Assembly: GCA_021108075.1 (NCBI GenBank)
Contig: JAIORP010000012.1
Location: 6,539 to 70,538, forward strand
DNA: 64,000 nt
Direction of reading: 5' to 3'
Origin: Candidatus Omnitrophota bacterium
GTDB lineage: Bacteria; Omnitrophota; Gorgyraeia; Zapsychrales; Zapsychraceae
Below, one piece after another: positions 17,376 to 51,468 of the stretch; the stretch's first letter is position 1; each line of letters starts with the position of its first letter. Below the pieces are notes generated by a model. The model did no database searches, was not told the origin of the DNA, and saw only the letters and a list, made by a program, of their open reading frames with translations. Made by a program: the position numbers and the translations under genes.

Positions 17376-17710
17376 GTTTTCCTCCAAAGAGAATGTCGGG
17401 ATTGTTTATCGCGACCCCATCAAGTATAGCTCCGCAACTCCAATGCCTGTGAAAGTGGGATGAGAGTTAAATCCAGAAACGAAGATTAGCGCCAATAGCG
17501 CTTGTAATAGTAAGTCCCCCGGGTGTGAACCCGTGGGAAGCTATTTTTCAGGCTCATTTTGCAGTAGAAAAGACTCTATTTTGATATATAATAATATATG
17601 TTGTATACTTATTTAGTTAAGTATTAATTTTCTTTATATTATGGCATTCATTGCAAGATGAGTTGCCATCCCTAATTCTACCATCGAATTTTTAACCGTT
17701 GATTATTTTT

Positions 17711-20700: not shown

Positions 20701-23700
20701 TGCGGCACGTTTTTATGACCGTTTGAATGTGGAGGAAACGATTTCCTTACAGACAAAACCTCAGGTCGTTCGCGATATTAAAATTATGGGTGTCACGGAA
20801 GCTATCGCGTATTTGTTGCACGCGTCGCCTGAAAAATTATTTGTGCATGAAGCGTATCTTCGGCAATTAGGTCTGGACCTGAATACAATTCGTGAGTGGC
20901 AACGGGAATATCTTGTTAAGCCGGAGCTGCTGAGTCTTTTTAATGAATTTAGAGAGAAAACGGAATTTGTACGGACATATGACGGCCATGATGAGTATTC
21001 GATCGGAGATTTCATTTTCAACGTGAAGAGCGGACAGAGCGCGTTATCTCAGGCTGAGATTCTTCATCATGACCGGCTTCAGGACCGGTTAAGGGGGATT
21101 TGGGGCGGCAGCACGATTATTCATTTGGATCAGCTGGGTGATGTTGTTGTCGACGGGGATAAAAAAAGGTTCGGTTATGTTTCCGTCTGGAATAAAGGCG
21201 AGCTGGTCGGAGAACGTTTGAAGGCGCTGGCTCAAAGAACGGATCCAGACAGTTTGACTGAAGCGCAAATTCTGATCGATCAATTTGTAGAGCAAGAGCA
21301 GCAACTGCACCTGAGAGGGGTTGTCGATAAAAATCCTGATATTATGACGAATCGCCGGATTTTGCCGATGGATAATCAGATGAAAGTGATGGTCGCGAGT
21401 CCGGCCGCCCAGTTGACGATTTGGGAGAATGCGTTATCTGTGTACCAGTCCCGATATGCCTCACGCCGGGCGGATGAGAATATATATTTATCTCCTCAGA
21501 TTTTACAAAGCATTCCAGAGGCGTTCAGGCCCTATTATGAACAAAAAGTAACGGAACAATTGTTGCCTTCTGCCGGACAGACAAAAGAAGACGCTTTTCA
21601 GCAATTTTACAATAATGTCTTTGAACTCGCCTTACATGTCGCGGATCGATCTCCCTTCGGAGACCTGATAAAATTTGGTTTAGTCCGTAATGAACAGGCG
21701 CATTTGATTGTTGAGAATTTGAAGAATACAGACGTGGAACATCCGGCCCTATTTGAACGCCGACTGAATCATATCCGGTTTATTTTTACACGGGCCCTCA
21801 TCGATCAGACCCGTCGTGATTATTTTGATTACGTCAATACGTCAAAAGGAAATCCGCTGCTTGCCTGGACCATGCTTTTTGTTGATTCATACCCGGAAGT
21901 TTATAATAAATTTAATTTGCTCATTAAAATTTTTCTGAACGAATTGATGGAAAATGCGGGATTGTTACAGTCCTTCCCCTCGAATGAAGAACTCTGGCAG
22001 TACATTTCAGCACGGTATCAAGAGACTTATTCTGTTAGAGGGTTAGCGACTCCCGGGTTAAGTGCATATGTGCGGCGTTCTTTTGAATATTTTATCGATA
22101 TCGCCCGTCAAATGCCGTTAAGCTGGGACTTGATACAAGAACGGCCAGCGGTCACCGGTGATTTGGCCTCAGATCCATACGAGTTTTCCCTAACATCTTA
22201 TGCCAATGAAACGCAAGGGTATCCCGATATGATGGGGGTACAAGTTTTAGATGAGCGTGAGTTTGGTCGTCTCAGGACCTATATGGATCAACCGCGTAAA
22301 GCGGTCTTGACAGACCTCGACGGCACAGCAACACTCGTTGATCAGAAATCAGGTCGAGTTAGTGAAAGCGTAAAAGAATCGCATAAGGCCAATATTCAAC
22401 GCTTTGCTGAGCTGGTCACTGATGGCGTCTTAGTTGTTCCGACCACAAACCGCCGGGAGTCAAAAGCGGTTGCTTACGCTGAAGAAATTGATCAGGTCAT
22501 CCAGCAGACTCCCGGGTATCGGTATCGTCAAGATTCTAGGACGGGCGGATCGTTTTTATTGTTTTGGGCCTCTGGGATGAATGGCATGGATGTTGGTCAG
22601 AATAAATTATTAGATGATTTTCAGTTAAAATTTAATCCGCAACAACAGGAAGAGGTCGTTCAATCCTTGCTGAAGGATCAGGTTATCGCGTCACGCGCCA
22701 CAAGACATGTTGAGATCCTTGATGGAAAAATTAATGTTTATTATTCAGGTGGTACGCGCGTAAGCCGGGCAGGTTTTTTAGATGCTATCCGGGGTGTTTT
22801 AGATGGTTTGAATACCCTGGTCCGTCAAGACGGTTTTGCCCCAAAGGGCGAATATTCTTTGCTGCGGGTTGTCGACGGGGGAGAAAATGTCATCTCGATA
22901 CTGCCGCAGGACGCTAATAAGGCCCGGCCAAAGAATTATATTCAAAATCGTTATGCTATATCTGAAGATGAAACATTGATCCTTGTTGACCAACCGCAAC
23001 AAGGACGGGCGGACAATGACCTTGTCCGTTTGTCAGGTATTCATGTTGGGGATGATATCGATGATTTACCAGAAGGAGTTATCAGCACCAAGAAAGCAAT
23101 CGGCCTGGTTGGTCCGCAGGCGGTTCAATGGCTGCTAACAAACACAGAATTTTCTTCTCCTTTTATTGAAGAAGAAACCTTCCGCTCGATACTGGCAAAG
23201 AATATCCCACCGACACGGAATGTCGTCATTGAAAAGGTCGGAAACTTGCGTTTGGTGAGAACTCCCTGGCGCAAAAGACGTGTTAATCCGACAACCCCTT
23301 TTAGCGCGGTTGTTCTTCCCTTTGATCCTGGCCTTTTTAATTTTCGGAACGAAAACATTGATGAAAGCGATATCTTTTTCGAAGGCATTATCGAAGGGCA
23401 GGAAACAACGTTATTGTTGCAAAAGTCTCCCTTTGCCCCCGATCATTTTCTTGTAATTCCTGAGCGTGATCTTGAGCGTCCGCAGGTATTGCAGCCAAAG
23501 GACATCGCTTTTGGTGCCCGGTTTGTCCGTTCGCAAGCTTTGCCGCATTTGCGTTTGGGGTTTACAAGTTTAAAAGGCGGCGCATCTATTAATCAGCTGC
23601 ATATGCAGGCCTTCACGACGATCGAAGACCTTTCCGCGTTAGAATTGGTTCCTAAAAAAGAGGAGTACCGTATTCAAGGCGTCAGTGTGAATGTATTGGA

Positions 23701-26700
23701 AACAATGGAGGACTATCATTATAACGGCCTGATGTTCCATTCAGAGAACATTGAAGACCTTTCTGTTGTTGTTTATCGATACATCGAAATATTGAACCGG
23801 TTTGATATCCCCTATACCGTTAATTGGACCCAGGTCGGGGTGTATGTTATGCCGGTAAGAAGTTCCGTCGGGATACAAGGACGATTGGGTTTTTATGAAC
23901 ATATGGGTTTTGTTATTTCTAAAGATGTCAGCGAAAGCCGAGAGCAGGCTGTCGCAAAGTATGCTGATGAAATGCAATCAGCATCTCTGAACGATGCGGA
24001 CTTTATCCTAACGCATCAGTTTACCTTCTCGACCGAAGAGATTGAAGCTGCATCATTGAGGGAATTATCTTCCCGGTTAAATGAAGGAACGGACCGTCCG
24101 TCTGACGCGGCGATGTTGGGTGGCAGGGATGACAGGAATGAAGAGCGGCTTAATCTGGAGGCGTTAGAAAAGATAAATCTGCAAGCCTACGGGCCCGGGG
24201 GGCGCCATGGACTGATTGACCTGGAAAAATCTTACAATGATTCGCGTGTTTTTATGAGTTATATTTTCGGGTTAGCCGGGGCCGGGATGGTTGGTCTTCC
24301 GACAGCACTAATGACTCAGGACATCTATTCGTCCGCGACGGGGGCGCTCGTTGGTGCCGGGGTCGCGATCGCGACATATGTAAAATTATTTCCACAATCA
24401 AAATATAAAAATATTGAAGAGGGTATCCAGGCGTTGGAGAAAGCGCGTACTCAAGAGGAGATCCAGTCTGCGCGAGGTTTATTTATCGATGGAATGGCAG
24501 GCACAGATTCAGTATTGCTTCATCGTTTGGGCTTAACAGGTTTGGAAACATCGGAAAAATTATTTGCTAAAATGATGGGCGCAGAACAAACAGAGCTTGT
24601 TCTTCCTTCTGATATCCAACCCATCCAGGCTGATCAGATCAGGCAATTAGAAATAAATATGGGACTGGCTGGACTGGCTGATTTGTTAAAGATTGTTGTT
24701 CATGAAAAATTCGCGTACTTTTCCGTTGTTCCATCAATTCCGACCGATGAGCAACGGAAGTCATTAAGGGCCGCGATATCAGACCCTGATGTGATCAGGC
24801 GGCTTTTTAAAAACGTATCTGATGATAGCAATACGATAGAACGCCTGCAAGAAAGGGTATGGCACGGGATCTTTGATCTGTTGTACCGGCAGGATGGAGA
24901 CTCTATATTCTCTCCGGAGTATTTAGAGCTTTACAGGGATAATGAGATTTTTATGGAACAGGGGGTTTTGCGGGAGCTTGCCAATGATCAAGAACGCTCT
25001 CAGGAAGATTATCTGGTTGACGCGGTGAAATCAGAAATTAAAGCGGACAAACAGTATAAAATTCTTGTTTTCGCGACTGGCTCGGGAGCACTGATTAATA
25101 ATTTGTTGCAACAAATTTCAAATATTGGTGAGATCGTTGAATATGACCGTAGCGCTACTTCCAATGAAACGGCTGATCGCAAACGCAGAGAATTGTTGCC
25201 GCCCGATTTATATAATAAAGTTCGGCAGATTACAGCTGATGTTAGAGATTTTAAATCTGAGCTGAATGGCGAAGAGTTTGATTTTATTATTTCCACGGCA
25301 TCATTGCGCCTGATGAGTTCCGAAGCCCGGGAAAGCATATTAGAATTTTTGCAGGAAAAAGCAGGGTTGCGCAAGGGGGGATCGTTTATCTATATGGATA
25401 CCAGGGAGCATTCAGAAATCATGGGGCAGGCGGTCGACCAGATGCGGACGTCCGGTTTTAATGTGAGCGTTGATGATAAGTTTTTCGCGGGCCACAGAGA
25501 CGCGATGTTTTATATTTTTGTGCATCAATACCGAAAGAATCAAATCTTTAGAAATTTTATTGATCAGTTAATGAGCTTAAAGCGTAAAGATAATTTATAC
25601 AATTTTCTTTATGAGATGGCCGGTCACAGGAGAATCAAATTCGAATTATTAAAGGCGACGCAAACATCTGAGAGTTTGAGGAAAAAGAATTTTGAATCAA
25701 TGGTGAATCGATTTTCTGACGCCACAAAACAGATGTTTGGTTCTGTGTTTGAAGATGCACGGGTGACAGTCCAAAAGGGACCCAGTTCACGAATCACAAT
25801 CCGTTTATTTGAAAAGGATCCAGATGTTGATTATTTAGACAGCTATGATATCAGCGTCGATACCGCGCTGGGCCAGGTGTATGCGGTCACTCTTTATGAT
25901 GGGCGGAGTATCGGGAAAAACACTTTAATTGTTGGACGCGCGGTCTTGCAGGATCCAACAGTGGATAGAGTCATTCTGACGCAGCATGTGTTGTCTTCAA
26001 AATATGGATATGATGAAGCGTTAAAGGAATTGAAGTCCGTGTTATCTGAAATATTGCCTGAGGGGATGTTAAATTTTGATGAATCGGAAACATTGGATCG
26101 TTTAGCGACACATGCCGCGGGGTTAACAAAGAGTGATATGTCGGAGGCTATTAACGCCATTCCGGTCGATGCGGAAAATTACGAAGATATGATCATTGAA
26201 GCGTTTCGTTCATATTCTCGAACAGTCTATCCTTCACAAGAGCGTTTGCCTTTCCGGGGAGCGGCAAAGATTTTTCGAGAGAATGCCTCGATGGCGATGC
26301 GTTTGGCCGGCGAAGAGGGTTATTCATCAATTAGCGGACTCGTTTCTTTACCTGATGGTTTTCAAAATTTAGCGTTATATCAGAGGCTTGGTTTTAATCC
26401 GATAATCCCGGAAGGAAGAAGCGATTATTTTGGACAGGTGCAAGCAGCGTTAACAGATAAGAGCGCGGGCGCGACCTTAAAGGAAAAGGCCTGGTATTTG
26501 TCGCAACGTCTGGAGCAATTGATATTACTCGTTCAAAAAGATATTCCTGATCAAGACGCGGCGATGTTGGGCAAAATCAATCGTTATCAACTTAAAAATG
26601 GGGCAACGGTTTTAGGCCCGTTATCTGAGGACGCGTTTAATCAGATGGCAGGCGAAGACGCGTTTTTTCTTGTCAGAGATAAGGAAAAAGGAGTCTATGC

Positions 26701-29700
26701 TCAAAAGACAACCCCCGAGGAGCAGGGTTATAGTGTTGTTGCAACGGAATTTAGTGAGATCGAAACAATTTTTAAGGATGCCGGTGTGGATATGGTCACT
26801 CATATTTTGTCGACGTTATGGGAGAATCCAGATCGTGAAGTCGTCGTGTTAGCTGATGGAGTTGGCCGGGGAGTGGAATTGCAGGGACTTGTTGAAAAAT
26901 TAAAGAAAGAGGTAGAGGCTTTCGGCCTTGATATATCAAAAATCAAAATTTATGGTCTTTCAGACATGTATTTTCAGGACTGGCAGGACGCAGACCCGAT
27001 GATCAATTTTATTCTTGATGATCGAGAGAACTTGCCGGACTATTTCTCGAGAAGGCAAATTGACGTGATGATGAGTTATAAGGGCATTTCTCATATCGGT
27101 CAGCAAGCGGAATATATCAATCATATGAGAATGATGAAGCCGCACTTTAAATACAACGCCTTAATTGTCCATGATTTTTATTTTGGGAATTTAGACGCCG
27201 TTGAATCGATGCTGGAGCGGAATGGTTTTTCGGTTAAGAGGGAACGGTTGCCGGGTATGACGGAGTTATTTGTTCTGCGACCGGTCGATTTTAATAAAGA
27301 TGCGCCTGCCGATGTATCAGAAAACACGAATAGGGAGGTTAAAACGGTGCCGTATCAACAGGCGGAGTTTTTTGAACTCACGCCTGATTACAAACTAGCA
27401 GGAACATACACCACCCGAAAGGGAGAAGAATTCAATATTTATTTTAAAGATAATGATTTTGTGTTGATGAACGTTGAAGGGCAGTTTATCGGTAAGGTTG
27501 TATTTGATTTTACGGAAGAGGGTGTCGCGGAAATTGATTTAGTGCGCGTTTCAGAGTATGTTCAGGGGGAAGGATATCTGTATGATTTGATTGATGCTAT
27601 ATCTTTTTATTTAGGACAATTGGGAGCCGAAAGTATTGTCGTTACGGAAATTTATAATCCATTTTTGTCCTATGTTTTGACAAAAGAATATGGATTTCAT
27701 CCTGAGATTAAAGAGGGTGATGAACGCAAACAATTGATTATTGGTTCACGAGAGCCAGGTGAGAGACTGCCCGTTTATCTTTCCGGAGAAGGCGCTAAGA
27801 AAGTTTTCTCGCCGGGCTCAGGGTATGATGTTCTATTAGAAAAGTTAGATATCCTTGATACCCCTCCCGATGATGGCGTTGTCAGCTATGTGTTTGTTGA
27901 TTATGTTAAGGACGTTAATAACGCGCGATACCAACAGCAAATAAGTTCTGTCAAAAACAGGATGGCGATTGATGGAGAAATTCTTGAGCAAAGGAAGAAC
28001 GAATATCAAACAAAATTTCAGCGACGAGGAACAGACGACATGTCAGAAGATCACCGCGATCAAGCGATGTTGATAACCTATACGGAAAAAGAGTGGCAGC
28101 AAATAGACCAGACGTATCAAATTTTGCAGCAGTTGGCGCAGGTGGTTGATACTCAGATGGAACAGAGTGGTATGGTTGAAATTTTTGATGTCTTCCGTCA
28201 ATGGCTCAATCAAGGACCGCGGGATGCTTTGGCCCAAATCGAATTGATTGAGGACCCTCAGGAACAACAGGAAGCTTACCAGAAATTAAGCGCTGCCCTA
28301 TCACGTTTTGTTCATGAATTTGAGACAACATATGATCATGTATCGAAAAGATGGGGGCAGGAAATCGCGGGCGTTAACGGCCGGTCCTTTGTTCAATTTG
28401 ATACGGATGGGAAGGTCCTTTCTTATCCATGGTTTGATTTGACGTATGACCTGAATGACAAGTTGGATAAACTGGCCACCTTTATTCTTGGCTGGGGGAA
28501 GCTTTTGGTTACGGATGGCGCTGTTGCCAAAGATAATTTTTTGCTTTTGGTCAACAAATTGGAATCTACGTACCGCATATGGGATGGTTACCGGCAATAT
28601 TTGCGCCATGTTGCGGATCCGCTGTCAATTCAAGATAGTCAGATCGCGGATAATCAAGAAGAAAGAACACAGCCGCGTTTGGGTTATGATGAGTTTTTAT
28701 TGCCGTACCGCAATGCGTTATTAGCGCGCGATGCGGACCAGGATACTTTGGAGCAACCGCGTGAAGAATATGTTGCCCTGGTGGATGCGCAGGGGAATTT
28801 TTTGCGGGCTGTTCCACGTTCTGAGCGTAAAAATAAGGCGCCGGATGAATTTACTCAGGGTGCTGTTATTATTGTTGTCGATGAGGATGGGAATGTTTTG
28901 ATGCAGCAGCGATCAGAAGGGAAGATGGAAGGGCACGAAACCTTTGGCCCCATGGATTGGACCATCGGGGGGCATCGTTCTGATGAGGATGCCGACATTG
29001 AAGCCGCTGCTTTGCGCGAAGGCAATGAAGAGGCCGGGGGCATTATCAATTTTAAGAAATCAAATCTGGTGCAGATCGATCAGCGTCCTGTTAATCCGGA
29101 CACGGATGGCCGCTGGGTGCGCTCAACGTTCATTTATGTGGTCAGTGCAACAGAGAAGAACAATATTCAGGAACAGATGATCGAGGGCTGGCAAGGGAAT
29201 GACGAAGTTGACGGCTGGGAGTGGTGGGGGCAAGATGATTTTACAACAGAGGCAAAAACGAGCCAGAAATGGTCAACCGTGATTGATCTGTTAAGAGACA
29301 TTCCTGATTTTCCGGCGATGGTAGAAACGGCTGTTGTGGGTGTTACGCAGCGTCGCCGAGATAGCACGGTTCGAGACGGGGCAGCACTGACAACCTATAC
29401 GGAAAAAGAGTGGCAGCAAATCGACCGGACCTACCAGACGCTGCAGGAGATCGCCTTAAGCGTTCAGGGGAAATTGCAGGAAACAGGTATGACCACTCTC
29501 TTTCTACGCATCGACCAGTTCCTGGTCCAGGAGGACCCACGGCTGATGTTTGAACAATTACAAGACTTACCGAGCAAAGAGGCTCAAGATCGGGTTTATG
29601 CGGTAATAAACACGGCCATGCAGGGCTATGCCCTGAATATCAAAACCATGTATCAGGAAAACATATCAGAGATTGACGCTCAACTCGCCCGGATCAAAGG

Positions 29701-30313
29701 CCGATCCTTTGTTCAATTTAGCGCGGAGGGGGCATTGGAAGCATACTCTGCAGAGGAGTTGATCTATGACATCAAAGATAAGATAGGCAAAATAACGACT
29801 AATATTTTTTCCTGGTGGGATATGCTGTCATCAGACGGTGATCTCCCAAGGGAACAATTTTTGTTTATGCTGGATCAGTTTGAATATGCGAGTGAGGCAT
29901 TCCATCAGTACCGTTCTTATCTGGGACACATTCTTCAACCAATTCGTATTCTGGATGAAGATATCGTTGACAACCAAGAAGAACAAAGCCACCCACGGCA
30001 AAGCTATGATCAATTTTTACTGCCCTACCGTGATGCGTTGATCGCGCGTGATACCGCAGTCCAGGACGCTGCCATGCTGGGCAGAGAGCAAAGTGACAAT
30101 GTCGGTGGTATCGATCTTAATCCCGCCAATTTGAATCTGCGCATCAAGCGTGACGGGGATGGTCAGCCGTTGCCGTTTGATGCCCAACCGATCGATAGTA
30201 TTAACATTGAAGGACTGGTCCCTGTGATCATTAATGTTACACCGATCATAAACCTGCCGCTATTGCTTGGAGCGGCTGAGCCGGGTGAAGTCGATCAGGT
30301 CCTATCCCTTTAA
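17711..30313 (+). CDS. Giant (~4,200 aa) secreted or membrane-associated multidomain protein
   Basis: Uninterrupted 12.6-kb ORF with an N-terminal signal peptide. Domains by motif: PRK/uridine-kinase-like P-loop (GISGLPGGGKT...YDPVTG), HAD (LTDLDGTA...GDDIDD), HIT/GalT-like (HFLVIPERD, INQLHMQ), hydrophobic hairpin, class-I MTase-like (ILVFATGSGAL), GNAT-like (QGEGYLYDL), Nudix box (GGHRSDEDADIEAAALREGNEEAGG) and tandem ~230-aa repeats. The C-terminal ~75 aa are shared with the ORF at 47473. Confidence 0.8.
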   Translation: MPSKSMSYKLFCLFLILALGVHMIMPATGFAQGMISLPIPGEMVRVSPVFDPMMIRGVMVSPDNPFELKFLMDSGDAILADEALKKEGQGLIKYFLATLTTPDEDLWVNLSPYENDRIMANEFGQTEMGRDMLAQDYLLKQLTASLMYPEEELGRRFWERVYEEAYKRFRTTNILVNTFNKVWIIPEYADVYEKDGVAYILDCRLKVMLEEDYIASQQVLGNAAWARKLGVADLTEEDKANLFASQSDPLKAILKEIIVPEIEREVNEGRNFGQLRQIFYSMILATWYKERLKNSILNHVYSNQKKINGIDVEDKDIKEKIYQQYITAFKRGVYNYIKEQYDPQKGEVIPRKYFSGGATWINIKDVTRYHKELPSNFDKVPRSDFAMLTRLDDSAQAAPRAMDAAMLDTSGRQRARQDAFEKLVRDRFEFDNVIASFNDLLKGANLKVYPSRADLYQYEGGLDTGSYFFTKLVGYGLDAQRKYIALRRLIEQDQFLDFISGEATFSRGDLLRILKNKELDDELDLILKDQDSYDDFISMLADRDYMDILFSHTGTAEIYIENNKLVAQLPNTQLVDVLGFISFSPEDRNIEFLLSENSMAQFLFDIRRQVLPLLVEAAQEYGWGFRSPLEVELSDAVRPIANVISRVREQELERFLGQDTFSRRVEDLEHGAFQNLKDLFQERKQQGQPVMIGISGLPGGGKTQKDKRVAAAIAEVVKEDIVIIDEDRFIKQRAPVDTRGEGLGGKFDWSAHDQSLKDLREGRSVMAQMYDPVTGGNPMLALTEAGNIIILNGNRTITIVADKDQNLFDLIEEEHQPGQPAQVIRHHFKTENLTQSGPFTSGSTVYQFKIENGKLMVGFQGYDVLRLEEQNAPRNILAMTQYEIDLTREDLVARIQLSGEHKHLEAQSVFPLNVVSDRMDVNAVSRAILLKEVIPTDKPIVFSGTHAYTQYKDNKFVSNDQIFDVSLYYQTPWIVRWTRDWLRSQERGKQRGEQLGNAARFYDRLNVEETISLQTKPQVVRDIKIMGVTEAIAYLLHASPEKLFVHEAYLRQLGLDLNTIREWQREYLVKPELLSLFNEFREKTEFVRTYDGHDEYSIGDFIFNVKSGQSALSQAEILHHDRLQDRLRGIWGGSTIIHLDQLGDVVVDGDKKRFGYVSVWNKGELVGERLKALAQRTDPDSLTEAQILIDQFVEQEQQLHLRGVVDKNPDIMTNRRILPMDNQMKVMVASPAAQLTIWENALSVYQSRYASRRADENIYLSPQILQSIPEAFRPYYEQKVTEQLLPSAGQTKEDAFQQFYNNVFELALHVADRSPFGDLIKFGLVRNEQAHLIVENLKNTDVEHPALFERRLNHIRFIFTRALIDQTRRDYFDYVNTSKGNPLLAWTMLFVDSYPEVYNKFNLLIKIFLNELMENAGLLQSFPSNEELWQYISARYQETYSVRGLATPGLSAYVRRSFEYFIDIARQMPLSWDLIQERPAVTGDLASDPYEFSLTSYANETQGYPDMMGVQVLDEREFGRLRTYMDQPRKAVLTDLDGTATLVDQKSGRVSESVKESHKANIQRFAELVTDGVLVVPTTNRRESKAVAYAEEIDQVIQQTPGYRYRQDSRTGGSFLLFWASGMNGMDVGQNKLLDDFQLKFNPQQQEEVVQSLLKDQVIASRATRHVEILDGKINVYYSGGTRVSRAGFLDAIRGVLDGLNTLVRQDGFAPKGEYSLLRVVDGGENVISILPQDANKARPKNYIQNRYAISEDETLILVDQPQQGRADNDLVRLSGIHVGDDIDDLPEGVISTKKAIGLVGPQAVQWLLTNTEFSSPFIEEETFRSILAKNIPPTRNVVIEKVGNLRLVRTPWRKRRVNPTTPFSAVVLPFDPGLFNFRNENIDESDIFFEGIIEGQETTLLLQKSPFAPDHFLVIPERDLERPQVLQPKDIAFGARFVRSQALPHLRLGFTSLKGGASINQLHMQAFTTIEDLSALELVPKKEEYRIQGVSVNVLETMEDYHYNGLMFHSENIEDLSVVVYRYIEILNRFDIPYTVNWTQVGVYVMPVRSSVGIQGRLGFYEHMGFVISKDVSESREQAVAKYADEMQSASLNDADFILTHQFTFSTEEIEAASLRELSSRLNEGTDRPSDAAMLGGRDDRNEERLNLEALEKINLQAYGPGGRHGLIDLEKSYNDSRVFMSYIFGLAGAGMVGLPTALMTQDIYSSATGALVGAGVAIATYVKLFPQSKYKNIEEGIQALEKARTQEEIQSARGLFIDGMAGTDSVLLHRLGLTGLETSEKLFAKMMGAEQTELVLPSDIQPIQADQIRQLEINMGLAGLADLLKIVVHEKFAYFSVVPSIPTDEQRKSLRAAISDPDVIRRLFKNVSDDSNTIERLQERVWHGIFDLLYRQDGDSIFSPEYLELYRDNEIFMEQGVLRELANDQERSQEDYLVDAVKSEIKADKQYKILVFATGSGALINNLLQQISNIGEIVEYDRSATSNETADRKRRELLPPDLYNKVRQITADVRDFKSELNGEEFDFIISTASLRLMSSEARESILEFLQEKAGLRKGGSFIYMDTREHSEIMGQAVDQMRTSGFNVSVDDKFFAGHRDAMFYIFVHQYRKNQIFRNFIDQLMSLKRKDNLYNFLYEMAGHRRIKFELLKATQTSESLRKKNFESMVNRFSDATKQMFGSVFEDARVTVQKGPSSRITIRLFEKDPDVDYLDSYDISVDTALGQVYAVTLYDGRSIGKNTLIVGRAVLQDPTVDRVILTQHVLSSKYGYDEALKELKSVLSEILPEGMLNFDESETLDRLATHAAGLTKSDMSEAINAIPVDAENYEDMIIEAFRSYSRTVYPSQERLPFRGAAKIFRENASMAMRLAGEEGYSSISGLVSLPDGFQNLALYQRLGFNPIIPEGRSDYFGQVQAALTDKSAGATLKEKAWYLSQRLEQLILLVQKDIPDQDAAMLGKINRYQLKNGATVLGPLSEDAFNQMAGEDAFFLVRDKEKGVYAQKTTPEEQGYSVVATEFSEIETIFKDAGVDMVTHILSTLWENPDREVVVLADGVGRGVELQGLVEKLKKEVEAFGLDISKIKIYGLSDMYFQDWQDADPMINFILDDRENLPDYFSRRQIDVMMSYKGISHIGQQAEYINHMRMMKPHFKYNALIVHDFYFGNLDAVESMLERNGFSVKRERLPGMTELFVLRPVDFNKDAPADVSENTNREVKTVPYQQAEFFELTPDYKLAGTYTTRKGEEFNIYFKDNDFVLMNVEGQFIGKVVFDFTEEGVAEIDLVRVSEYVQGEGYLYDLIDAISFYLGQLGAESIVVTEIYNPFLSYVLTKEYGFHPEIKEGDERKQLIIGSREPGERLPVYLSGEGAKKVFSPGSGYDVLLEKLDILDTPPDDGVVSYVFVDYVKDVNNARYQQQISSVKNRMAIDGEILEQRKNEYQTKFQRRGTDDMSEDHRDQAMLITYTEKEWQQIDQTYQILQQLAQVVDTQMEQSGMVEIFDVFRQWLNQGPRDALAQIELIEDPQEQQEAYQKLSAALSRFVHEFETTYDHVSKRWGQEIAGVNGRSFVQFDTDGKVLSYPWFDLTYDLNDKLDKLATFILGWGKLLVTDGAVAKDNFLLLVNKLESTYRIWDGYRQYLRHVADPLSIQDSQIADNQEERTQPRLGYDEFLLPYRNALLARDADQDTLEQPREEYVALVDAQGNFLRAVPRSERKNKAPDEFTQGAVIIVVDEDGNVLMQQRSEGKMEGHETFGPMDWTIGGHRSDEDADIEAAALREGNEEAGGIINFKKSNLVQIDQRPVNPDTDGRWVRSTFIYVVSATEKNNIQEQMIEGWQGNDEVDGWEWWGQDDFTTEAKTSQKWSTVIDLLRDIPDFPAMVETAVVGVTQRRRDSTVRDGAALTTYTEKEWQQIDRTYQTLQEIALSVQGKLQETGMTTLFLRIDQFLVQEDPRLMFEQLQDLPSKEAQDRVYAVINTAMQGYALNIKTMYQENISEIDAQLARIKGRSFVQFSAEGALEAYSAEELIYDIKDKIGKITTNIFSWWDMLSSDGDLPREQFLFMLDQFEYASEAFHQYRSYLGHILQPIRILDEDIVDNQEEQSHPRQSYDQFLLPYRDALIARDTAVQDAAMLGREQSDNVGGIDLNPANLNLRIKRDGDGQPLPFDAQPIDSINIEGLVPVIINVTPIINLPLLLGAAEPGEVDQVLSL

Positions 30314-33900: not shown

Positions 33901-33923
33901 TTTTTTAATGTGGAGATAAAGCC

Positions 33924-45937: not shown

Positions 45938-46230
45938 AAGAAGAGCGGGGTTCGGGCATGCCCGTTCCCTACAGGATTATTGATTATTATGCCATGTAGG
46001 TTTGGCATAATAATATATTGATCTAAATCGATATTGTTGAAATGTGCGGGTATTTCTAACCAGGTTTTTTTAATAATTTCTCCTGATTCGTTTAATATCA
46101 TTTTGTCATTACTGATTGTTCCAAATTTTTCAATTCTATTATGCGCACAAATTGTTACAAAATAATATCCCGGCATGCGATAATCATATTCTTTTAATCT
46201 GTTTTGTTTTCGTTTTGGTGATTTGTCCAT
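45901..46230 (-). pseudogene. IS200/IS605-like (RAYT-type) Y1 transposase, N-terminal fragment only
   Basis: YYFVTICAHNRIEKFG...IMPN motif, but the HuH box is disrupted (LHGII instead of HVHLL) and the ORF runs into the CPBP gene terminus; low-GC context. Confidence 0.45.
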
Positions 46231-46317
46231 TTTATTATTTTGATTATAACGAGAAAATCAGCCGCCTTTGGAGCCGTGAAGCGGCGGAAAAGGTCGGCTG
46301 TATTGCTTTGATATATG

Positions 46318-46923: not shown

Positions 46924-47472
46924 ATAACAATTATTATACGACAGTCCGATTTACTTGCTTAACAGGACATCGCAGGTTGAGTTTGATTAAAATCATTAAG
47001 AATATATGCTTTTTATAACTAAAATAGCTGATAAATGGACAGTCGTTGAAGCTGTGCGTATTTGTATTCCGGACATTATTTCTGATATAAATCAATCCTT
47101 AAAAAACAAATTCCCTATCGACATACAAACATTCTAGTCTTCCCCTTAATTATTGTCAATGACTTGAATCGACTTAAAATGGACTAAAAGGTCAGTTTTT
47201 TGGACGCAAATCCATATCCGTTCATACGCGCGTATCGCGAAATTTATCACAAACTAAAATTCATCCGGTTTTGTGAGGGGGGCAATATTTTGATATGAAA
47301 GGCGCCTTTTAGGCCGGGGGAGGGGTGTTAAACGTCCCCATTTTGATTTTTTTCATCGGGAAGGTGAGCTGACAATAGGATCTTGTTAATAAATACAAAA
47401 TATGCTATTGTTCATATATAGAATATTTATACTAATATTTATTTCCAATTTCCAAAAAACAGGAGCAGACGT

Positions 47473-50400
47473 ATGAACGCGTTATTTTTCTCGAACCTTT
47501 CCACATTTTCTCGAAAAATTTTATCTGTTACTTTATGTCTTTTTCTCATTCTGATATCCACCCCGGTCCCGCTTGTCAGGGCCCAAACGCCATTGAATCT
47601 GCCCTTGCCAGGGGCGGCGGTCCCTTTAACCTCCGCGTATGAACCCGCGTTATTAAGGGGATTGACCATTTATCCGGATAATCCTTTGCAGTTTGAATTT
47701 TTGTTGGATGCGGGCGACACTTTTTTGCGAGGTCAAGCATTGCGAAAGCAAGGTGAAAAGTTAATCAAATATTTTTTGGCCGCCTTAACCATTCCTGAAG
47801 AAGAGATGTGGGTGAATCTTTCTCCCTATGAAGATAATCTTATCATTCCGGATAGTTTTGGTGACACGACCATGGGGAGCGACCTTTTAGCCCAGGATTA
47901 TTTGCTCAAGCAATTAACCGCTTCTTTAATGACCCCTGAAGATGAGATCGGCCGGATTTTTTGGGACCGTATTTATGAAAAAGTTTACAATATGTACAAG
48001 ACAACGGACATTCCATTGAACACGTTTAATAAAATTTGGATTGTGCCGGAATCAGCCACAGTCGTGGAGAAGGGTAATGATGTTTACCTTATGAATAGCC
48101 GGTTAAGCGTGATGCTGGAAGAAGATTATGTCGCCTTAAAACAAAATCTTGGCGACGAGAAATTCGGCACCGAGCAAATGGAAATGGATGAAGCTCAGGT
48201 AATCAGTCAGGTCGCGACAGAATTGGTGCGTGAGATTATTATCCCTGAAATTGAAAGAGAGGTCAATGAAGGCCAAACTTTCGCTCAGTTGCGGCAAATT
48301 TATCATGCCATGGTTTTATCCACCTGGTATAAGCAGAATTTAAAAGAATCATTCCTGGGGCAGGTCTATATCGATCAATCCAAGACAAAAGGTGTGGATA
48401 CCTGGGATAAACAGGTCACGAATAAGATTTATGATCAGTACATTCAAGCCTTTAAATCAGGAGTCCAAAATATCATCCGTGATGAGTATAATCAGCATGA
48501 TGGAGTTGTTGTGCCGCGGAAATATTTTTCCGGTGGTTTTACCACGCAACGTTTTGATGGCCGTGATTTGGCGATGTTGACCACCCGGATCAATTTGGAG
48601 TATTTCCAAAATGTTGACGCGAAGTCAAGAGCGGAAGTTCGGGATTGGCTGATGGAAGCGGATAATAGTGAGTTGTTTCAGTTTTCATTGTCTTTGATCG
48701 AATACACGGAAAATAATGAACTGCACATGGACGATGTTGTTAACGCCGGTTTTTTTGATAATGTGATTGATGAACTTCACTCACAAAGGATAAACTTACT
48801 AAAGGAGGCTCAGATCGCGCCTTTTATGCTGGAAATTCCTTTTGATCAGCGGATACAAGAAGACGGAATATCTCACCCTACGACCAAAGATGACCTGATT
48901 ATTATCGGGGAAAGATTTCGCAAGGGAATTGATCGTATTTCTAAAATCGTTCACCGGGATAAACTGACAGGTCTGTATAATTTAGATGGATACATGTTGC
49001 GGTTGCAAGAGATGGTCGATTGGATCAGACGTCAGGGTGATAAGGATGATCAGCTGCAGTATGTCTTTTTTGATATCGATCATTTTAAGGCGGTAAATGA
49101 TACTTTCGGTCACGATAATGGGGATATTGTCTTGCAGGAATTCGCCGAGATTTTAAGTTCAAACGTGCGCGCTTCAACCACAGTCGCCCGGATCGGCGGG
49201 GAAGAGTTCATCGTTATGATGTTTGATAAATCATCTGAAGATGCTGTTCTCGCCATGAAAAGAATGAAAGGCGTTTTGCGGGATCATTTTCAAACGCAGG
49301 TCAGCAAGACGGACAAGACATTTTTGTACGATAAAAAACAACTTGTTATCCAGGCGAAGAAAAGGATCGGTAAACTCCTTGAAGCAAAGACCGCCGGGCA
49401 GTCGGTTGGTTTTGATATAACAAAGTTACGGGACGCGATCGCGCACCAGGTTAAGGTCCAGGCAACCAATGACGCCGAAAGGCGATTCGCTCAAGCCCTC
49501 CAGTCGGAAGCTCTTTTTAACGCGGATGAAACCGGAGTTAATCCTGAAATTGAAAAGGCGCTTGACCTATTAGCGGGCTGGATGATCACGTTCAGCGCGG
49601 GGATAACGATTTTTGATTTGCCCCAGTATGAAAAGCTGCTTCAACGTGATGGCATCAAATCCGGTGACGCTTTGACGCAAGTGGCGACATTGCTTTATCG
49701 TCAGGGTCAAGCCGCTGTTGAGGTGGCTAAAAACAGTGGACGGGATGAAATAACGGTTTTTGATCCAGAGACAATGGAAATCGATGAAGACAGGGATCTG
49801 GGCAGTTATGCCAGTCCGGCCCCCTCTTATGAAGCGCATGACCTGGACAAAATGACGAGACGACGATTATTGAAAGAAGTCAACGGGCTCCGTAAGAGGT
49901 TTGTATCCTTGATAAATAAATCCGAGACCGATCCGTTAACAGGAATGAAAAACCGCAATGGCTTATATCAAAAGTATATTGAACGGGTGCATTACGGCGC
50001 GCGTTACCAGCCTGATACGAGTATGGCGTTAGCCTATACGGATATTGATTTCTTTAAGACCATTAATGATAGTTTTGGCCATGAAATAGGGGATGATGTT
50101 TTAAAGGCTTTAGCCGCTGGGTTTAAAGAAAATTTAAGAACGATTGATACCGTGGCCCGTTTCGGCGGCGAAGAAGTCATTATTTTTTTGCCGGCCATGA
50201 AGCGCATGGATGAGCAACGGACGATTTTAAAAGTTAGAGATATTGTCAGGAGAACAACAAAATACATTCGGGAAAATGTTTCTTTATTCGGGAACAAGAC
50301 TGAGGTGATTAAAAAAATTAGAGCGCGCATCGGGGCCCTCGACGAAAGTCAAAAAGAAGGGCTTGGCGTGGACGCTGATCTGGCGAATCTACGTAACGGT

Positions 50401-51309
50401 CTGGTTCATCAGTTAACCGTGCAGGAAGTTTTTACGGATGAAAATGAAGCAGAAAAGAAAAGATACCTTAACGATACGGGTATTGCCACCCTCTATGAAT
50501 TAGCCGATTTGCTTAATGGTTGGGACGTTACTTTAAGCGTCGGTGTTGAGATCGATGATTTTACGGAAGAGGGCAAGATCCAGTCTTATCTGAAAAAAGG
50601 AGATTTAGACACGGGGTTAACCTTGATGGTTGCCAAAGCGGAAATCGCCGCCGGTTATGTCAAAGAGACGGGCCGTAACCGCGCGGCTTATCACAGTGAG
50701 GTCCCTCGAGTGTCAAGACCCGCGCCAAATATCTTAGCGATCATCGAAAAGGAACAGGACCGTGACGGGTTCAAGGCTTATTTTGAAAATAAAGGTTATG
50801 TTGTGACAGTTGTTGGCGACTTAGAATCGGCTGAAGGTGAGTTAGCGGAACAATTAGCCAGGTATAGTTTTGTTTTAACGGAAAAACAATCCGCGGTTTC
50901 TGCCGACGATGATTCTTACCTTCCTGGCAATGAGGTGATTGATCGTTTAAGATCGATATTTCCCGGGATAAAGTCTTTGATTTTAGGCAGCCCGGAGGAA
51001 ATCTATGATGTTGATCATATTGAAGAGATGATCACAGGCGCGATTGGTGAGGGAAAAACAGATCAAGCCATGTTGACGGCTCGTTTGGATAACACCCCGG
51101 TCGGTGGTATCGATCTTGACCCGGCTCTGCTTGATTTGAAAATTAAACGCGATGGAGAGGGCATTGCCTTACCACTACTGCAACAACCGCCCGAAGCGCT
51201 GCAAATTGAGGGCTTTATCCCTGTGATCATGAACGTGACACCCGTGCAGACGCTGCCGATTTTTCTTGGAAACCTGGCGACTGAAGGGGATACGTTAGCC
51301 CAATTATAG
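47473..51309 (+). CDS. Signal-peptide protein with giant-protein-like N-domain, two GGDEF domains, a pseudo-receiver and a shared C-terminal domain
   Basis: N-terminal signal peptide; aa ~40-390 paralogous to the giant ORF N-domain; GGDEF-1 (RIGGEEF, no RxxD) and GGDEF-2 (RTID...RFGGEEV); C-terminal 75 aa paralogous to the giant ORF C-terminus. Confidence 0.85.
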   Translation: MNALFFSNLSTFSRKILSVTLCLFLILISTPVPLVRAQTPLNLPLPGAAVPLTSAYEPALLRGLTIYPDNPLQFEFLLDAGDTFLRGQALRKQGEKLIKYFLAALTIPEEEMWVNLSPYEDNLIIPDSFGDTTMGSDLLAQDYLLKQLTASLMTPEDEIGRIFWDRIYEKVYNMYKTTDIPLNTFNKIWIVPESATVVEKGNDVYLMNSRLSVMLEEDYVALKQNLGDEKFGTEQMEMDEAQVISQVATELVREIIIPEIEREVNEGQTFAQLRQIYHAMVLSTWYKQNLKESFLGQVYIDQSKTKGVDTWDKQVTNKIYDQYIQAFKSGVQNIIRDEYNQHDGVVVPRKYFSGGFTTQRFDGRDLAMLTTRINLEYFQNVDAKSRAEVRDWLMEADNSELFQFSLSLIEYTENNELHMDDVVNAGFFDNVIDELHSQRINLLKEAQIAPFMLEIPFDQRIQEDGISHPTTKDDLIIIGERFRKGIDRISKIVHRDKLTGLYNLDGYMLRLQEMVDWIRRQGDKDDQLQYVFFDIDHFKAVNDTFGHDNGDIVLQEFAEILSSNVRASTTVARIGGEEFIVMMFDKSSEDAVLAMKRMKGVLRDHFQTQVSKTDKTFLYDKKQLVIQAKKRIGKLLEAKTAGQSVGFDITKLRDAIAHQVKVQATNDAERRFAQALQSEALFNADETGVNPEIEKALDLLAGWMITFSAGITIFDLPQYEKLLQRDGIKSGDALTQVATLLYRQGQAAVEVAKNSGRDEITVFDPETMEIDEDRDLGSYASPAPSYEAHDLDKMTRRRLLKEVNGLRKRFVSLINKSETDPLTGMKNRNGLYQKYIERVHYGARYQPDTSMALAYTDIDFFKTINDSFGHEIGDDVLKALAAGFKENLRTIDTVARFGGEEVIIFLPAMKRMDEQRTILKVRDIVRRTTKYIRENVSLFGNKTEVIKKIRARIGALDESQKEGLGVDADLANLRNGLVHQLTVQEVFTDENEAEKKRYLNDTGIATLYELADLLNGWDVTLSVGVEIDDFTEEGKIQSYLKKGDLDTGLTLMVAKAEIAAGYVKETGRNRAAYHSEVPRVSRPAPNILAIIEKEQDRDGFKAYFENKGYVVTVVGDLESAEGELAEQLARYSFVLTEKQSAVSADDDSYLPGNEVIDRLRSIFPGIKSLILGSPEEIYDVDHIEEMITGAIGEGKTDQAMLTARLDNTPVGGIDLDPALLDLKIKRDGEGIALPLLQQPPEALQIEGFIPVIMNVTPVQTLPIFLGNLATEGDTLAQL

Positions 51310-51468
51310 GAACAAAAGAGAGGCAGCTGTTATCTGAGTAAAAAGGTAGCGGCTGTTTCCACTTTTTTCTTGCTCTCTTTGATATATCAGTTATAATATT
51401 TGAATTCTATCCTGCAAAACATAAAACTATCGTAAAACATTAGGTCTATTATACTTTCATCGTTAATG

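Follow-up and report, generated by a model that had tools for sequence, protein, structure and literature searches.

Diguanylate cyclases of the PleD/WspR type are built on the GGDEF domain (PF00990), which carries a GG(D/E)EF signature, a Mg2+-binding Asp, a guanine-binding Asn/Asp, and a phosphate-binding Lys/Arg. Known diguanylate cyclases are either cytoplasmic or hold their GGDEF domain on the cytoplasmic side. For example, in sensor cyclases of the YfiN/TpbB and DgcN type, a hydrophobic N-terminal segment and a large non-GGDEF region precede the GGDEF domain, and a second transmembrane segment (TM), together with HAMP, brings the chain back into the cytoplasm. A normal periplasm is not expected to contain GTP. 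In the Omnitrophota, giant proteins that combine a signal peptide with metabolic Pfam domains and GGDEF have already been reported (10.1101/2023.11.21.568195; 10.64898/2026.06.07.730766). Members of this phylum are reported to be ultra-small and host-dependent or predatory (PMC10066038), and predator RNA has been observed inside prey cells (PMC13153191).

Here, we describe a double-GGDEF protein encoded at 47473..51309 of the window, that is, the whole 64,000-nucleotide stretch of Omnitrophota DNA that was analysed; all features below lie on its + strand. A preliminary description of the gene had reported two GGDEF domains behind a Sec signal. That observation is confirmed, and the interpretation given to it is partly supported. 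The main point was missed: two unannotated stretches, 320 aa at the N-terminus and 66 aa at the C-terminus, define a family, which is very large and undescribed.

Architecture and topology of the protein

The open reading frame starts with ATG, encodes 1278 aa, and keeps the coordinates first given for it. Its layout is a signal peptide, a ~320-aa N-domain, a linker, two GGDEF modules, a ~120-aa region, a ~66-aa C-motif, and an acidic tail. A Shine-Dalgarno-like AGGAG (47461..47465) lies 7 nt 5' of the ATG and the nearest in-frame stop is 17 codons upstream; therefore, the hydrophobic N-terminus does not result from a misplaced start. Downstream, a candidate terminator, a 16-bp hairpin followed by a T-run (51320..51369), was found by consensus scan 11 nt past the stop codon.

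Residues 1–37 (47473..47583) have the features of a Sec-type signal peptide: an n-region with R14 and K15, an h-region (residues 16–34), and a c-region PVPLV-R-A followed by Q38, in the n/h/c layout of the whole family. The h-region is the only strongly hydrophobic 19-mer (Kyte-Doolittle, KD, 2.31) and the sole segment above KD 1.9 in the protein. Thus, the initial reading of the N-terminus as a Sec-type signal with N-in orientation holds, and its sequence had been quoted correctly. From the c-region we infer cleavage at the predicted VRA|QTP site, i.e., before Q38.

Both GGDEF domains are borne out by profile matches (Pfam PF00990, E 8e-52, in two stretches; TIGR00254, E 6e-59), and the catalytic cores of the two modules are 39–42% identical to PleD, whose residue numbering we take to be that of PDB 1W25. 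The N-terminal two-thirds of module 1 (residues 485–605, 48925..49287) matches the Pfam profile over residues 494–605 (profile 2–110 of 161), is 42% identical to PleD 278–392, and contains D534, K539, N542, D551, R573, and GGEEF (575–579). As first noted, this module has no I-site: RAST (566–569) occupies the position of the RxxD, ahead of R573-I-G575GEEF579. Its C-terminal third (residues 701–765, 49573..49767, including GWMITFSAGITIF) carries K753 and R757 (AKNSGRD). In module 2, the N-terminal two-thirds (residues 809–925, 49897..50247; defined by Pfam, TIGR00254, and PleD alignment) contains D857, K862, N865, D874, R896, and GGEEV (898–902). Here an RxxD I-site (R889-T-I-D892) and the GGEEV variant (R896-F-G898GEEV902) are both present, again as described. 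The C-terminal third (GWDVTLSVGVEI, residues 1016–1078, 50518..50706) carries K1064 and R1068 (VKETGRN).

The catalytic set is therefore complete in module 1 (D534/N542/D551/R573/E577-E578/K753/R757) and in module 2 (D857/N865/D874/R896/E900-E901/K1064/R1068). A comparison with homologs agrees: a syntenic ortholog (P0170), 33% identical, keeps GGEEF and GGDEF along with all catalytic, metal-binding, and phosphate-binding residues. The proposal of non-canonical extracytoplasmic GGDEF folds thus stands in part. Topology rules do place the modules outside, but their active sites are canonical, with the full set of catalytic residues in place. Their unusual feature is instead a ~95-aa insert common to both. 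Insert 1 (about residues 606–700, 49288..49572) is absent from PleD and from the Pfam profile, has no Pfam match of its own, and contains the conserved motif LRDAIAHQVKVQ. It is paralogous to insert 2 (about residues 926–1015, 50248..50517, motif LRNGLVHQLTVQ) and occurs also in the ortholog (IKNGLIHQFVFQ). When the inserts are deleted in silico, the Pfam match becomes continuous over profile positions 2–135 (module 1) and 2–145 (module 2) of 161.

The gene product has no second transmembrane segment. The segment LLAGWMITFSAGITIF (residues 699–714, 49567..49614), once offered as one, is present with a KD of only 1.6. It was rejected as a TM: these residues form the conserved 'vTvSiGva' core β-strand of GGDEF-1, displaced by the insert, and the extended Pfam match of module 1 passes through them. 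Hydropathy and profile alignment likewise give no N-in/C-in arrangement with two TMs. With an N-in Sec signal and nothing downstream returning the chain, standard topology rules place both GGDEF modules outside the cytoplasm, and this predicted location is supported.

The variable linker (residues 357–484, 48541..48924) has low AF2 confidence, no Pfam match at E<=10, and 21% identity to the ortholog. A region of unknown fold (residues 1079–1200, 50707..51072) is 30% identical to the ortholog. It had been taken for a pseudo-receiver, an assignment that fails: there is no Pfam match at E<=10, and the PDB sequence matches at E<=10, the best at E=1.5, include no receiver.

A bookend family and its passengers

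The N-domain (residues 38–356, LNLPxPG to RKYFSGG, 47584..48540) contains the invariant motifs WVNLSPYE, DYxLKQ, NTFNKxWIVP, ExN, and LRQ. A word index gave more than 1256 matches, and a profile search recovered 8,365 clusters (50% identity) at E<=1e-3, 6,723 of them at E<=1e-30; in every case the domain lies at protein residues ~1–370. At least 584 loci were found in reference genomes, many per genome, and the top 80 are all Omnitrophota MAGs. The AF2 model of a homolog has a mixed α/β fold (pLDDT 85–95), with no match in Pfam or NCBIfam, none to PDB sequences at E<=10, and none to PDB structures by Foldseek. The C-motif (GGIDLDPALLDLKIKRDGEGIALP...IEGFIPVIMNVTPVQTLPIFLG, residues 1201–1266, 51073..51270) follows the invariant pattern GGI...G..P.I....P and has no Pfam match. 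Of 123 representatives, 83 have a single copy within the last 80 aa, and in the AF2 model of one member (P0093) it reaches pLDDT 78–91 despite the disordered linker preceding it. Beyond it lies a short acidic or polar tail (residues 1267–1278 with the stop codon, 51271..51309), which varies in the family from 11 to 78 aa. The bookends are the best-conserved parts of the protein relative to the ortholog (N-domain 58%, C-motif 45%, GGDEF cores 31–38%). Searches and alignments thus show the N-domain and the C-motif as paired bookends of an Omnitrophota-restricted family with thousands of members.

A second member, a single open reading frame of 4204 aa, lies in the same window (17699..30313). By tblastn, its N-domain maps to 17813–18787 (E 1e-116) and its C-motif to 30065–30271 (E 1e-19); between the signal peptide with N-domain and the C-motif it carries NUDIX and SAM-methyltransferase passengers (Pfam NUDIX, Methyltransf_25/31). 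Only two of its segments are hydrophobic, the signal peptide at KD 2.2 and the C-motif at KD 1.93.

About 60 Pfam passenger families were found in ~60 scanned members together with precomputed matches. The metabolic ones are GAPDH, PGK, TIM, enolase, PPDK, hexokinase, PGI, PGM, UGPase, ICL, and malate synthase. Others are radical SAM/B12, SNF2/DEAD/ResIII, Pkinase, HATPase, DnaJ, NUDIX, MTases, Macro, DRAT, and GGDEF. No hydrolase, adhesin, or Ig-type passenger occurs in this set. As annotated by profile, the passengers are shown to be almost exclusively cytoplasm-type, nucleotide- or cofactor-dependent enzymes. PGK and enolase are both full-length (E 1e-103 and E 1e-100), and the one PGK passenger that was compared is a divergent additional copy, at most 41% identical to any standalone PGK.

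Such passengers sit behind a uniform export-type signal. Among 195 family N-termini, the n-region has a net charge of +4.4 against +0.06 past the h-core, which gives positive-inside N-in orientation in 98.5%. A -3/-1 site, mostly [AVSG]xA|Q, is found in 189 of the 195 (97%), with a helix-breaking PP downstream; lipoboxes occur in none and Tat-like signals in 4. The h-region is unusually conserved across paralogs (SAFIAFTFIFS-type). That an SPase-I-type c-region is conserved across thousands of paralogs argues that the signal peptide is used. A further TM is absent from 67 of 83 full-length representatives and from the 4204-aa paralog. Judged from these sequences, the topology paradox, a Sec signal on cytoplasm-type enzymes, is real and family-wide.

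Where the GGDEF modules may act

The reading that we consider most likely, albeit tentative and unproven, is that family members are Sec-exported carriers whose passengers become active where host- or prey-derived nucleotides are available. The precursor would pass through SecYEG, and signal peptidase I would cut it at VRA|Q38, which would make the whole mature protein extracytoplasmic. Model confidence (pLDDT) suggests that the N-domain and the C-motif probably pack against each other to form a single module for carrying, anchoring, or delivery, from which the intervening passengers would loop out. Within one chain, the two GGDEF modules could pair as an antiparallel GGDEF-GGDEF catalytic dimer and would make c-di-GMP wherever GTP is supplied, with RxxD product inhibition presumably kept in module 2 and not in module 1. 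Since the producer periplasm is normally without GTP, the likeliest site would be a compartment supplied from the cytoplasm of a host or prey. Candidate sites are the inside of an attached host or prey cell, or a contact zone or periplasm receiving its contents. This proposal agrees with the epibiotic or predatory way of life suggested for Omnitrophota; if the host is bacterial, a delivered cyclase would raise c-di-GMP there.

Several observations count against export of an active cyclase. The GGEEV of module 2 is a variant of the signature, and Sec is poorly suited to passengers of the radical-SAM/Fe-S and multi-kDa glycolytic kinds. We know of no precedent for cargo of this kind being moved into another cell after Sec export. 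Secretion or delivery machinery was found neither adjoining the gene nor recurrently beside family members. In addition, two RR-GAF-HD-GYP genes and a hybrid histidine kinase immediately precede the ortholog, a neighbourhood that looks like ordinary intracellular c-di-GMP signalling.

This neighbourhood, with the retention of all catalytic residues, favours a possible, although unlikely, cytoplasmic location. The signal-like helix would then be an uncleaved tether or oligomerisation helix without translocation, for which an unusually conserved h-region is expected if it is retained with a partner, and the protein an ordinary intracellular diguanylate cyclase. The N-domain and the C-motif would serve as a membrane-proximal scaffold, with cytoplasmic HD-GYP phosphodiesterases and PilZ receptors as partners, and the family would tether metabolic and signalling enzymes to the inner membrane face in very small cells. 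The passengers amount to a cytoplasm's worth, including Fe-S radical SAM proteins, DNA/RNA helicases, DnaJ, response regulators, and all of lower glycolysis. Against this location stand the charge asymmetry, the SPase-I site followed by PP, and the lack of a second TM to give C-in. Moreover, the diverged PGK passenger is not obviously housekeeping, and PGK and enolase KOs are reported in 176 of 176 complete genomes, so that the passengers need not represent the glycolysis of the cell itself.

It is quite unlikely that the protein is exported with GGDEF modules that do not synthesise c-di-GMP but act as binding or structural modules on a surface or periplasmic scaffold, for example through the RTID I-site of module 2, which would bind c-di-GMP. 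Degenerate GGDEF domains, such as those of PelD and PopA, are well known as receptors, and such a role would agree with the absence of GTP from a normal periplasm, the GGEEV variant beside an intact I-site, and the interruption of each domain by an insert. However, purely structural modules would not be expected to keep every catalytic, metal-binding, and phosphate-binding residue in both copies and the ortholog, and the argument would have to cover dozens of intact enzyme passengers, such as full-length PGK and enolase.

Very unlikely is a nucleotide-containing internal compartment or enlarged periplasm, of the PVC kind, into which the signal peptide would target members for a second metabolism and signalling. 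It would reconcile a genuine Sec signal with nucleotide-dependent passengers, and the PVC superphylum, of which Omnitrophota are part, has signal-peptide-targeted compartments such as the anammoxosome. However, no such compartment is reported for Omnitrophota in the genome and lifestyle literature examined, no nucleotide transporter or compartment marker was found in the window, and the cells are ultra-small.

Finally, a two-TM sensor cyclase of the YfiN/TpbB type (N-in/C-in), with residues 38–698 as a periplasmic loop and 699–714 as the second TM, has a negligible probability: residues 696–714 do rank second in hydrophobicity among 19-mers, but at a KD of 1.6, below usual TM thresholds, the GGEEF half of module 1 would be left in the periplasm with the domain split across the membrane, the equivalent module-2 segment is non-hydrophobic, and the alignment to the GGDEF core strand after insert removal already refutes the model.

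Comparison with known systems

The two modules resemble PleD/WspR cyclases in profile matches, catalytic residues, and, for module 2, the I-site. They differ by the insert, which has its own conserved HQ motif and separates the GGEEF half from the last third, by the GGEEV of module 2, by tandem catalytic-type modules without a recognisable sensor or receiver domain, and by a Sec signal without a TM. In contrast to YfiN/TpbB and DgcN, the N-terminal region is a carrier-family bookend and not a Cache-, CHASE-, or PAS-type sensor.

Other likenesses are only of working principle. Two-partner-secretion exoproteins (TpsA/CdiA) also join a Sec signal and a shared ~300-aa N-terminal domain to a long variable remainder, and CdiA delivers a variable enzyme domain into the cytoplasm of another bacterium. 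However, the TPS domain is a β-helix with NPNL/NPNGI, whereas the N-domain is α/β, has long helices, and gave no match to a TPS model in Pfam or NCBIfam; no TpsB/Omp85 partner adjoins the gene, and the variable part is central rather than C-terminal. In T9SS cargo, an N-terminal Sec signal and a conserved C-terminal sorting element flank arbitrary cargo, and in MARTX toxins conserved N- and C-terminal regions flank swappable enzyme modules that use host-cytosol cofactors. No T9SS CTD, RTX repeat, or other sorting-signal model in Pfam or NCBIfam matches here; T9SS cargo consists of hydrolases or adhesins, and MARTX toxins use T1SS without a Sec signal.

The giant 'Archaeovorin' and multi-enzyme proteins of Omnitrophota (West-Roberts et al. 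2023 preprint; 2026 complete-genome preprint) share the phylum, the signal peptide, and the Pfam domains GGDEF, NUDIX, HAD, methyltransferase, hexokinase, PGM, and radical SAM. An unresolved conflict between topology and domain content is noted in those preprints too. The giants reach at least 10–25 kaa, mostly with many TM helices, and SecA-like or dockerin modules. The bookend pair, which is defined in neither preprint, here characterises proteins of 0.4–5 kaa that are mostly TM-free.

The split GGDEF modules and their topology

The ORF at 47473..51309 on the plus strand encodes a protein of 1278 aa. GGDEF is the sole Pfam/NCBIfam family type recognized in it by full-length scans, and it occurs in two stretches: PF00990 matches with an E-value of 8e-52 and 175.7 bits (cut-off 23.8), and TIGR00254 with an E-value of 6e-59 and 198.5 bits (cut-off 37.4). 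Coordinates, length and the two GGDEF domains agree with the preliminary description of this gene, whose observation is confirmed and whose interpretation is partly supported. An AGGAG lies 7 nt 5′ of the ATG and an in-frame stop lies 17 codons upstream; therefore, the N-terminus cannot be extended and a mis-call is unlikely. Together with the family-wide conservation of the signal peptide, these two features rule out a wrong start codon or a spurious N-terminus. At the other end, a 16-bp hairpin with a T-run is found 11 nt 3′ of the stop codon.

Both GGDEF stretches are 39–42% identical to the catalytic core of PleD and of other solved cyclases, and they are paralogous to each other (30% identity). 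The active-site signature is GGEEF at 575–579 in module 1 and GGEEV at 898–902 in module 2, where both Glu are kept and the last residue is changed from Phe to Val. In alignment with PleD, module 1 has D534, K539, N542, D551, R573, G575-G-E-E-F579, K753, and R757, and module 2 has D857, K862, N865, D874, R896, G898-G-E-E-V902, K1064, and R1068. As reference we used D327, N335, D344, R366, K442, and R446 of PleD (numbering of PDB 1W25), which we take to be the Mg2+/GTP-binding residues. By this comparison the Mg2+/GTP-binding set is complete in both modules. The comparison with homologs extends to P0170, the syntenic ortholog, in which two GGDEF modules are split as well and carry the canonical signatures GGEEF and GGDEF. 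At the I-site position module 1 reads RAST, and thus has no I-site, and module 2 reads RTID, an intact site, just as had been read from the sequence beforehand.

Neither module is a contiguous GGDEF domain of ~160 aa. Each carries an insert of ~95 aa after the helix that follows GGEEF, and in the native sequence each covers only positions ~2–110 of the 161 in the Pfam profile. When the insert is deleted in silico, the Pfam alignment of module 1 runs on through GWMITFSAGITIF to position 135/161, and that of module 2 through GWDVTLSVGVEI to 145/161. The modules are a split variant of the GGDEF domain. A Pfam search of the insert gave no match, and a motif common to the inserts of both modules and of P0170 reads LRDAIAHQVKVQ / LRNGLVHQLTVQ / IKNGLIHQFVFQ.

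A Kyte-Doolittle scan of the protein finds a single strong hydrophobic segment, residues 16–34, at 2.31; it is the only one with a 19-residue mean of at least 1.9. Next come residues 696–714 at 1.6 and the C-terminal PVIMNVTPVQTLPIFLG at 1.45. Residues 699–714 had been put forward as a possible second transmembrane segment that would return the chain to the cytoplasm. Once the insert is removed, the Pfam alignment of module 1 passes through this segment, and the candidate is therefore the conserved 'vTvSiGva' core strand of GGDEF-1; its counterpart in module 2 (GWDVTLSVGVEI) is not hydrophobic. The label 'pseudo-receiver' for residues 1079–1200 also fell away: PF00072 gave no Pfam match there at E<=10, no receiver is among the PDB sequence matches at E<=10, and a receiver domain in this region is thus without support from either source.

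Signal peptide, N-domain and C-motif across the family

The N-terminus had been described as a Sec-type signal with positive-inside orientation, and this reading holds. R14 and K15 form the charged part of the n-region, the h-region spans residues 16–34, and a cleavage site is predicted at V35-R36-A37|Q38, so that n-region charge, h-region, -3/-1 site and positive-inside orientation, the features of a Sec / signal peptidase I substrate, are all present in the sequence. The same layout is seen in 195 complete N-termini of the family, from which the statistics were taken. The n-region has a mean net charge of +4.4 vs +0.06 over the 25 residues past the h-core, and the positive-inside rule for an N-in/C-out orientation is obeyed by 98.5%. 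A -3/-1 site, mostly [AVSG]-x-A|Q, is found in 189 of the 195; it is usually preceded by a PP helix breaker and followed just after by an invariant LNLPxPG. The marks of lipoprotein and Tat signals, a lipobox Cys and a twin arginine, are lacking: no lipobox occurs among the 195 N-termini, and a Tat-like (RRxFL-like) motif occurs in 4. Of 83 full-length representatives, 67 lack any other TM-like segment; a number of the extra matches correspond to the C-motif itself. As judged from these sequences, the signal peptide appears genuine and family-wide.

Two conserved ends bracket the rest of the protein, and we refer to them as bookends. The first is the N-domain (residues 38–356), which directly follows the signal peptide and is 42–58% identical to 43 homologs. 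The second is the C-motif (residues 1201–1266), with the consensus GGI(D/N)(L/F)...G..PVI.N(I/V).P...LLG, in which the position before (I/V) is N or any residue, followed by a short polar tail. A search with residues 1–480 gave more than 1,256 matches, with up to 59% identity and nearly all from Omnitrophota MAGs or metagenomes; they cover residues ~40–356 and are fused to many different Pfam domains. An N-domain profile searched against 1.84 billion representatives matched 8,365 clusters, 6,723 of them at E<=1e-30, always at residues ~1–370 of host proteins that range from 420 to more than 5,300 aa. Of 123 new representatives, 83 carry a single copy of the C-motif, no more than 80 aa from the C-terminus. 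Reference genomes hold at least 584 confirmed family loci, with many copies per genome, and the best 80 of these are all from Omnitrophota bins, some mislabelled as Planctomycetales. The family is thus defined here by an Omnitrophota architecture of signal peptide, N-domain, passenger and C-motif, for which we found no published name; it is apparently a very large, carrier-type family that has hitherto not been described.

The bookends match no model of a known sorting or secretion domain in Pfam or NCBIfam. For the N-domain, neither database has a model and the PDB sequences give no relative at E<=10, and the isolated C-motif with its linker gives nothing in Pfam at E<=10 beyond chance-level matches. 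In full-length scans the GGDEF protein matches none of the Pfam/NCBIfam models for TPS, autotransporter barrel, T9SS CTD, PEP-CTERM, LPXTG, or RTX. AlphaFold2 predicts the N-domain as a mixed alpha/beta fold with two long beta-hairpins and about seven helices, neither a beta-barrel nor a beta-helix. The model of a fragment of the GGDEF protein has pLDDT 63 and pTM 0.59; that of P0093, a family member of 603 aa, has pLDDT 70 and pTM 0.68, with the N-domain at 85–95. Foldseek against PDB found nothing significant for either model. In the P0093 model the C-motif reaches pLDDT 78–91 despite a disordered linker of ~85 residues before it, and because it is confidently folded behind such a linker, the model suggests that the C-motif may pack on the N-domain. 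When the GGDEF protein is compared with P0170, conservation is highest in the bookends (58% identity in the N-domain and 45% in the C-motif, compared with 31–38% for the GGDEF cores and ~20% for the inserts).

A second family member in the window, an ORF of 4204 aa at 17699-30313 (+), is built alike, with the family's signal peptide and both bookends. Across its 4204 residues the only hydrophobic segments are the signal peptide and the C-motif. Its passengers, that is, the domains between the bookends, include a SAM-methyltransferase (aa ~2450–2583) and a NUDIX domain (aa 3720–3850), and ~3,000 aa are without a Pfam match. It was called mechanically from a TTG start, and its flanking genes are an MCP gene and a NuoE/F-like gene.

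Passengers and genomic surroundings

In about 60 scanned members and precomputed matches, the recognizable passengers are all cytoplasm-type domains. Those of central metabolism are GAPDH, PGK, TIM, enolase, PPDK, DeoC-type aldolase, hexokinase, ROK, PGI, PGM, UGPase, UDP-glucose dehydrogenase, isocitrate lyase, and malate synthase. Cofactor-dependent enzymes are represented by radical SAM/B12, SAM methyltransferases, NUDIX, HAD, metallophosphoesterase, Macro, and DRAT-like domains; nucleic-acid and signalling functions by SNF2, DEAD, ResIII, protein kinases, ABC1, HATPase_c, receivers, DnaJ, and GGDEF; and repeats by WD40, HEAT, and TPR. The same survey found no glycoside hydrolase, peptidase, Ig/FN3/cadherin, or cell-wall-binding domain among the passengers. 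Since cytoplasm-type passengers run through the family, the paradox first raised for the GGDEF protein, that an enzyme in need of nucleotides follows a signal for export, is a property of the family as a whole. For example, the member at locus L010 carries a PGK (E 1e-103), complete in length, and after it an enolase. This PGK is at most 41% identical to any standalone PGK, and judged by that divergence it would be a long-diverged copy and not an obvious housekeeping gene.

In five Omnitrophota MAGs (L010:4253-11326; L008, L025, L057, L072) a family member lies directly 3′ of trpG-trpD-trpC-trpF. The passengers at these loci differ fully between genomes (PGK with enolase, WD40 propellers, a protein kinase, a DRAT-like domain), which suggests that passengers are exchanged rapidly while their place on the chromosome is conserved; that they are trp-operon enzymes is rejected on the same grounds. 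When 618 neighbour ORFs of 80 loci were clustered, no partner gene recurred beside family members, and thus no dedicated neighbouring gene for secretion, sorting or processing. The top cluster is an antisense ORF of ~128 aa opposite the N-domain coding sequence in 17 of the 80 loci (e.g. L031:7566-7952, minus strand); the simplest view is that it is a shadow ORF and arises from sense-strand conservation.

Close relatives of the passenger part of the GGDEF protein were absent from 5.8 billion proteins and from JGI metagenomes. P0170 (1781 aa, 33% identity) is the only ortholog found in a search for dN/dS partners, and it is regarded as syntenic because its downstream genes (PanD, peptide deformylase, LipA-like radical SAM, LPG synthase) are those of the window. 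Two RR-GAF-HD-GYP genes and a hybrid histidine kinase lie immediately upstream of it (L081:1392-5724). This c-di-GMP turnover neighbourhood is absent from the window, in which no secretion system or other c-di-GMP gene was found.

Upstream of the GGDEF gene in the window are two small unannotated reverse ORFs and, 1.5 kb away at 44615-45937 (+), a CPBP/Rce1-like intramembrane protease domain with C-terminal TPR repeats, which does not recur as a neighbour in the 80 other loci. The two reverse ORFs, 45901-46923 (-), have no Pfam match at E<=1e-3 and lie in a region of low GC (0.35 at 46001-48000; window mean ~0.44). One of them, of 109 aa, resembles by eye a truncated IS200/RAYT-type Y1 transposase (YFVT.C...MPN.H), and the low-GC stretch may be the remnant of a mobile insertion.

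Elsewhere in the window, cas1 (E 2e-74) and cas4 at 45-1867 are followed at 2041-5421 by a CRISPR array with ~46 copies of a 37-nt repeat, GTCGAGAAACCTCATCCAGTAAAACAAGGATTGAAAC, at a period of 72–74; the mechanical ORFs 2774-3461 and 4173-4529 are translations of its repeats. There are two NuoE/NuoF-like flavoprotein and hydrogenase-type clusters, 8630-13578 and 30616-35842, the former with an unusual fusion of a response-regulator receiver to a NuoE-like [2Fe-2S] thioredoxin-fold domain (8630-9481). Next to them, at ~13.7-15 kb and 36-41.5 kb, come apparent HypA/B/F/D/E-like maturation genes, some of which were scanned. Nearly all 2-kb bins have a positive GC skew and the plus strand carries 37 of the 45 genes called mechanically, and the window is therefore consistent with the leading strand of a single replichore.

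Possible sites of action and comparison with known systems

To our knowledge, c-di-GMP synthesis is regarded as strictly cytoplasmic, and we found no literature precedent for an exported GGDEF cyclase. A cyclase with intact residues that is placed outside by standard rules thus means either new messenger biology or a failure of topology rules in this phylum. We lean, at slightly less than an even chance, towards a mature protein that resides outside the cytoplasm and works at a site supplied with GTP from a host or prey. The protein would be exported by Sec and cleaved at A37|Q38, the N-domain and C-motif would pair into one carrier module, and the two GGDEF modules would pair intramolecularly to form the active site, with product inhibition through module 2 only.

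In the main rival, the hydrophobic N-terminus would tether the protein without translocating it, and the cyclase would act in the cytoplasm of the cell that makes it. The HD-GYP genes next to P0170 and the cytoplasm-type nature of the passengers speak for it; however, the charge bias around the h-region and the conserved signal peptidase site speak against it, and we consider it unlikely. That the protein is exported but catalytically idle, with a binding or scaffold role, is improbable, and a nucleotide-containing internal compartment is very improbable.

A broader reading extends extracytoplasmic action to the whole family, in that the bookends and signal peptide would constitute an undescribed, Omnitrophota-specific system that delivers folded 'cytoplasmic' enzyme cargo to a host or prey cell or to a nucleotide-containing extracytoplasmic compartment. 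This reading is doubtful as it stands. If it is true, the GGDEF protein would be the first Sec-exported, catalytically competent diguanylate cyclase, and would offer a small, tractable system in which to study the topology paradox of giant proteins in Omnitrophota. RNA of an Omnitrophota predator has been found inside prey cells (PMC13153191), which gives indirect support to the notion that macromolecules can pass to prey.

The significance lies in the family itself, whose more than 8,000 sequence clusters place practically any cytoplasmic enzyme between conserved ends and downstream of a Sec signal. The giants are too large for experiments, and a protein of 1.3 kaa and members of 600 aa such as P0093 make the topology question testable. 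Its answer matters for the question of how bacteria that are ultra-small and depend on hosts deal with these hosts or take advantage of them.

Among known systems, YfiN/TpbB-like sensor cyclases with an N-in/C-in arrangement require a second TM before the GGDEF domain, whereas the protein described here has none, and the two-TM model is refuted. It is a form of a known enzyme kind that is new in being split, tandem and signal-peptide-bearing. Two preprints (10.1101/2023.11.21.568195; 10.64898/2026.06.07.730766) report that in Omnitrophota giants metabolic and signalling Pfams, GGDEF among them, occur together with signal peptides, TM helices or both, that pilZ genes and T2SS/Tad-like loci lie near giants, and that topology prediction conflicts with 'intracellular' domain content. 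We found no description of the N-domain/C-motif family in the Omnitrophota papers, these preprints and PMC10066038 among them. The phenomenon has thus already been noted for giants at the level of the phylum; the bookend architecture and a small tractable member are apparently new.
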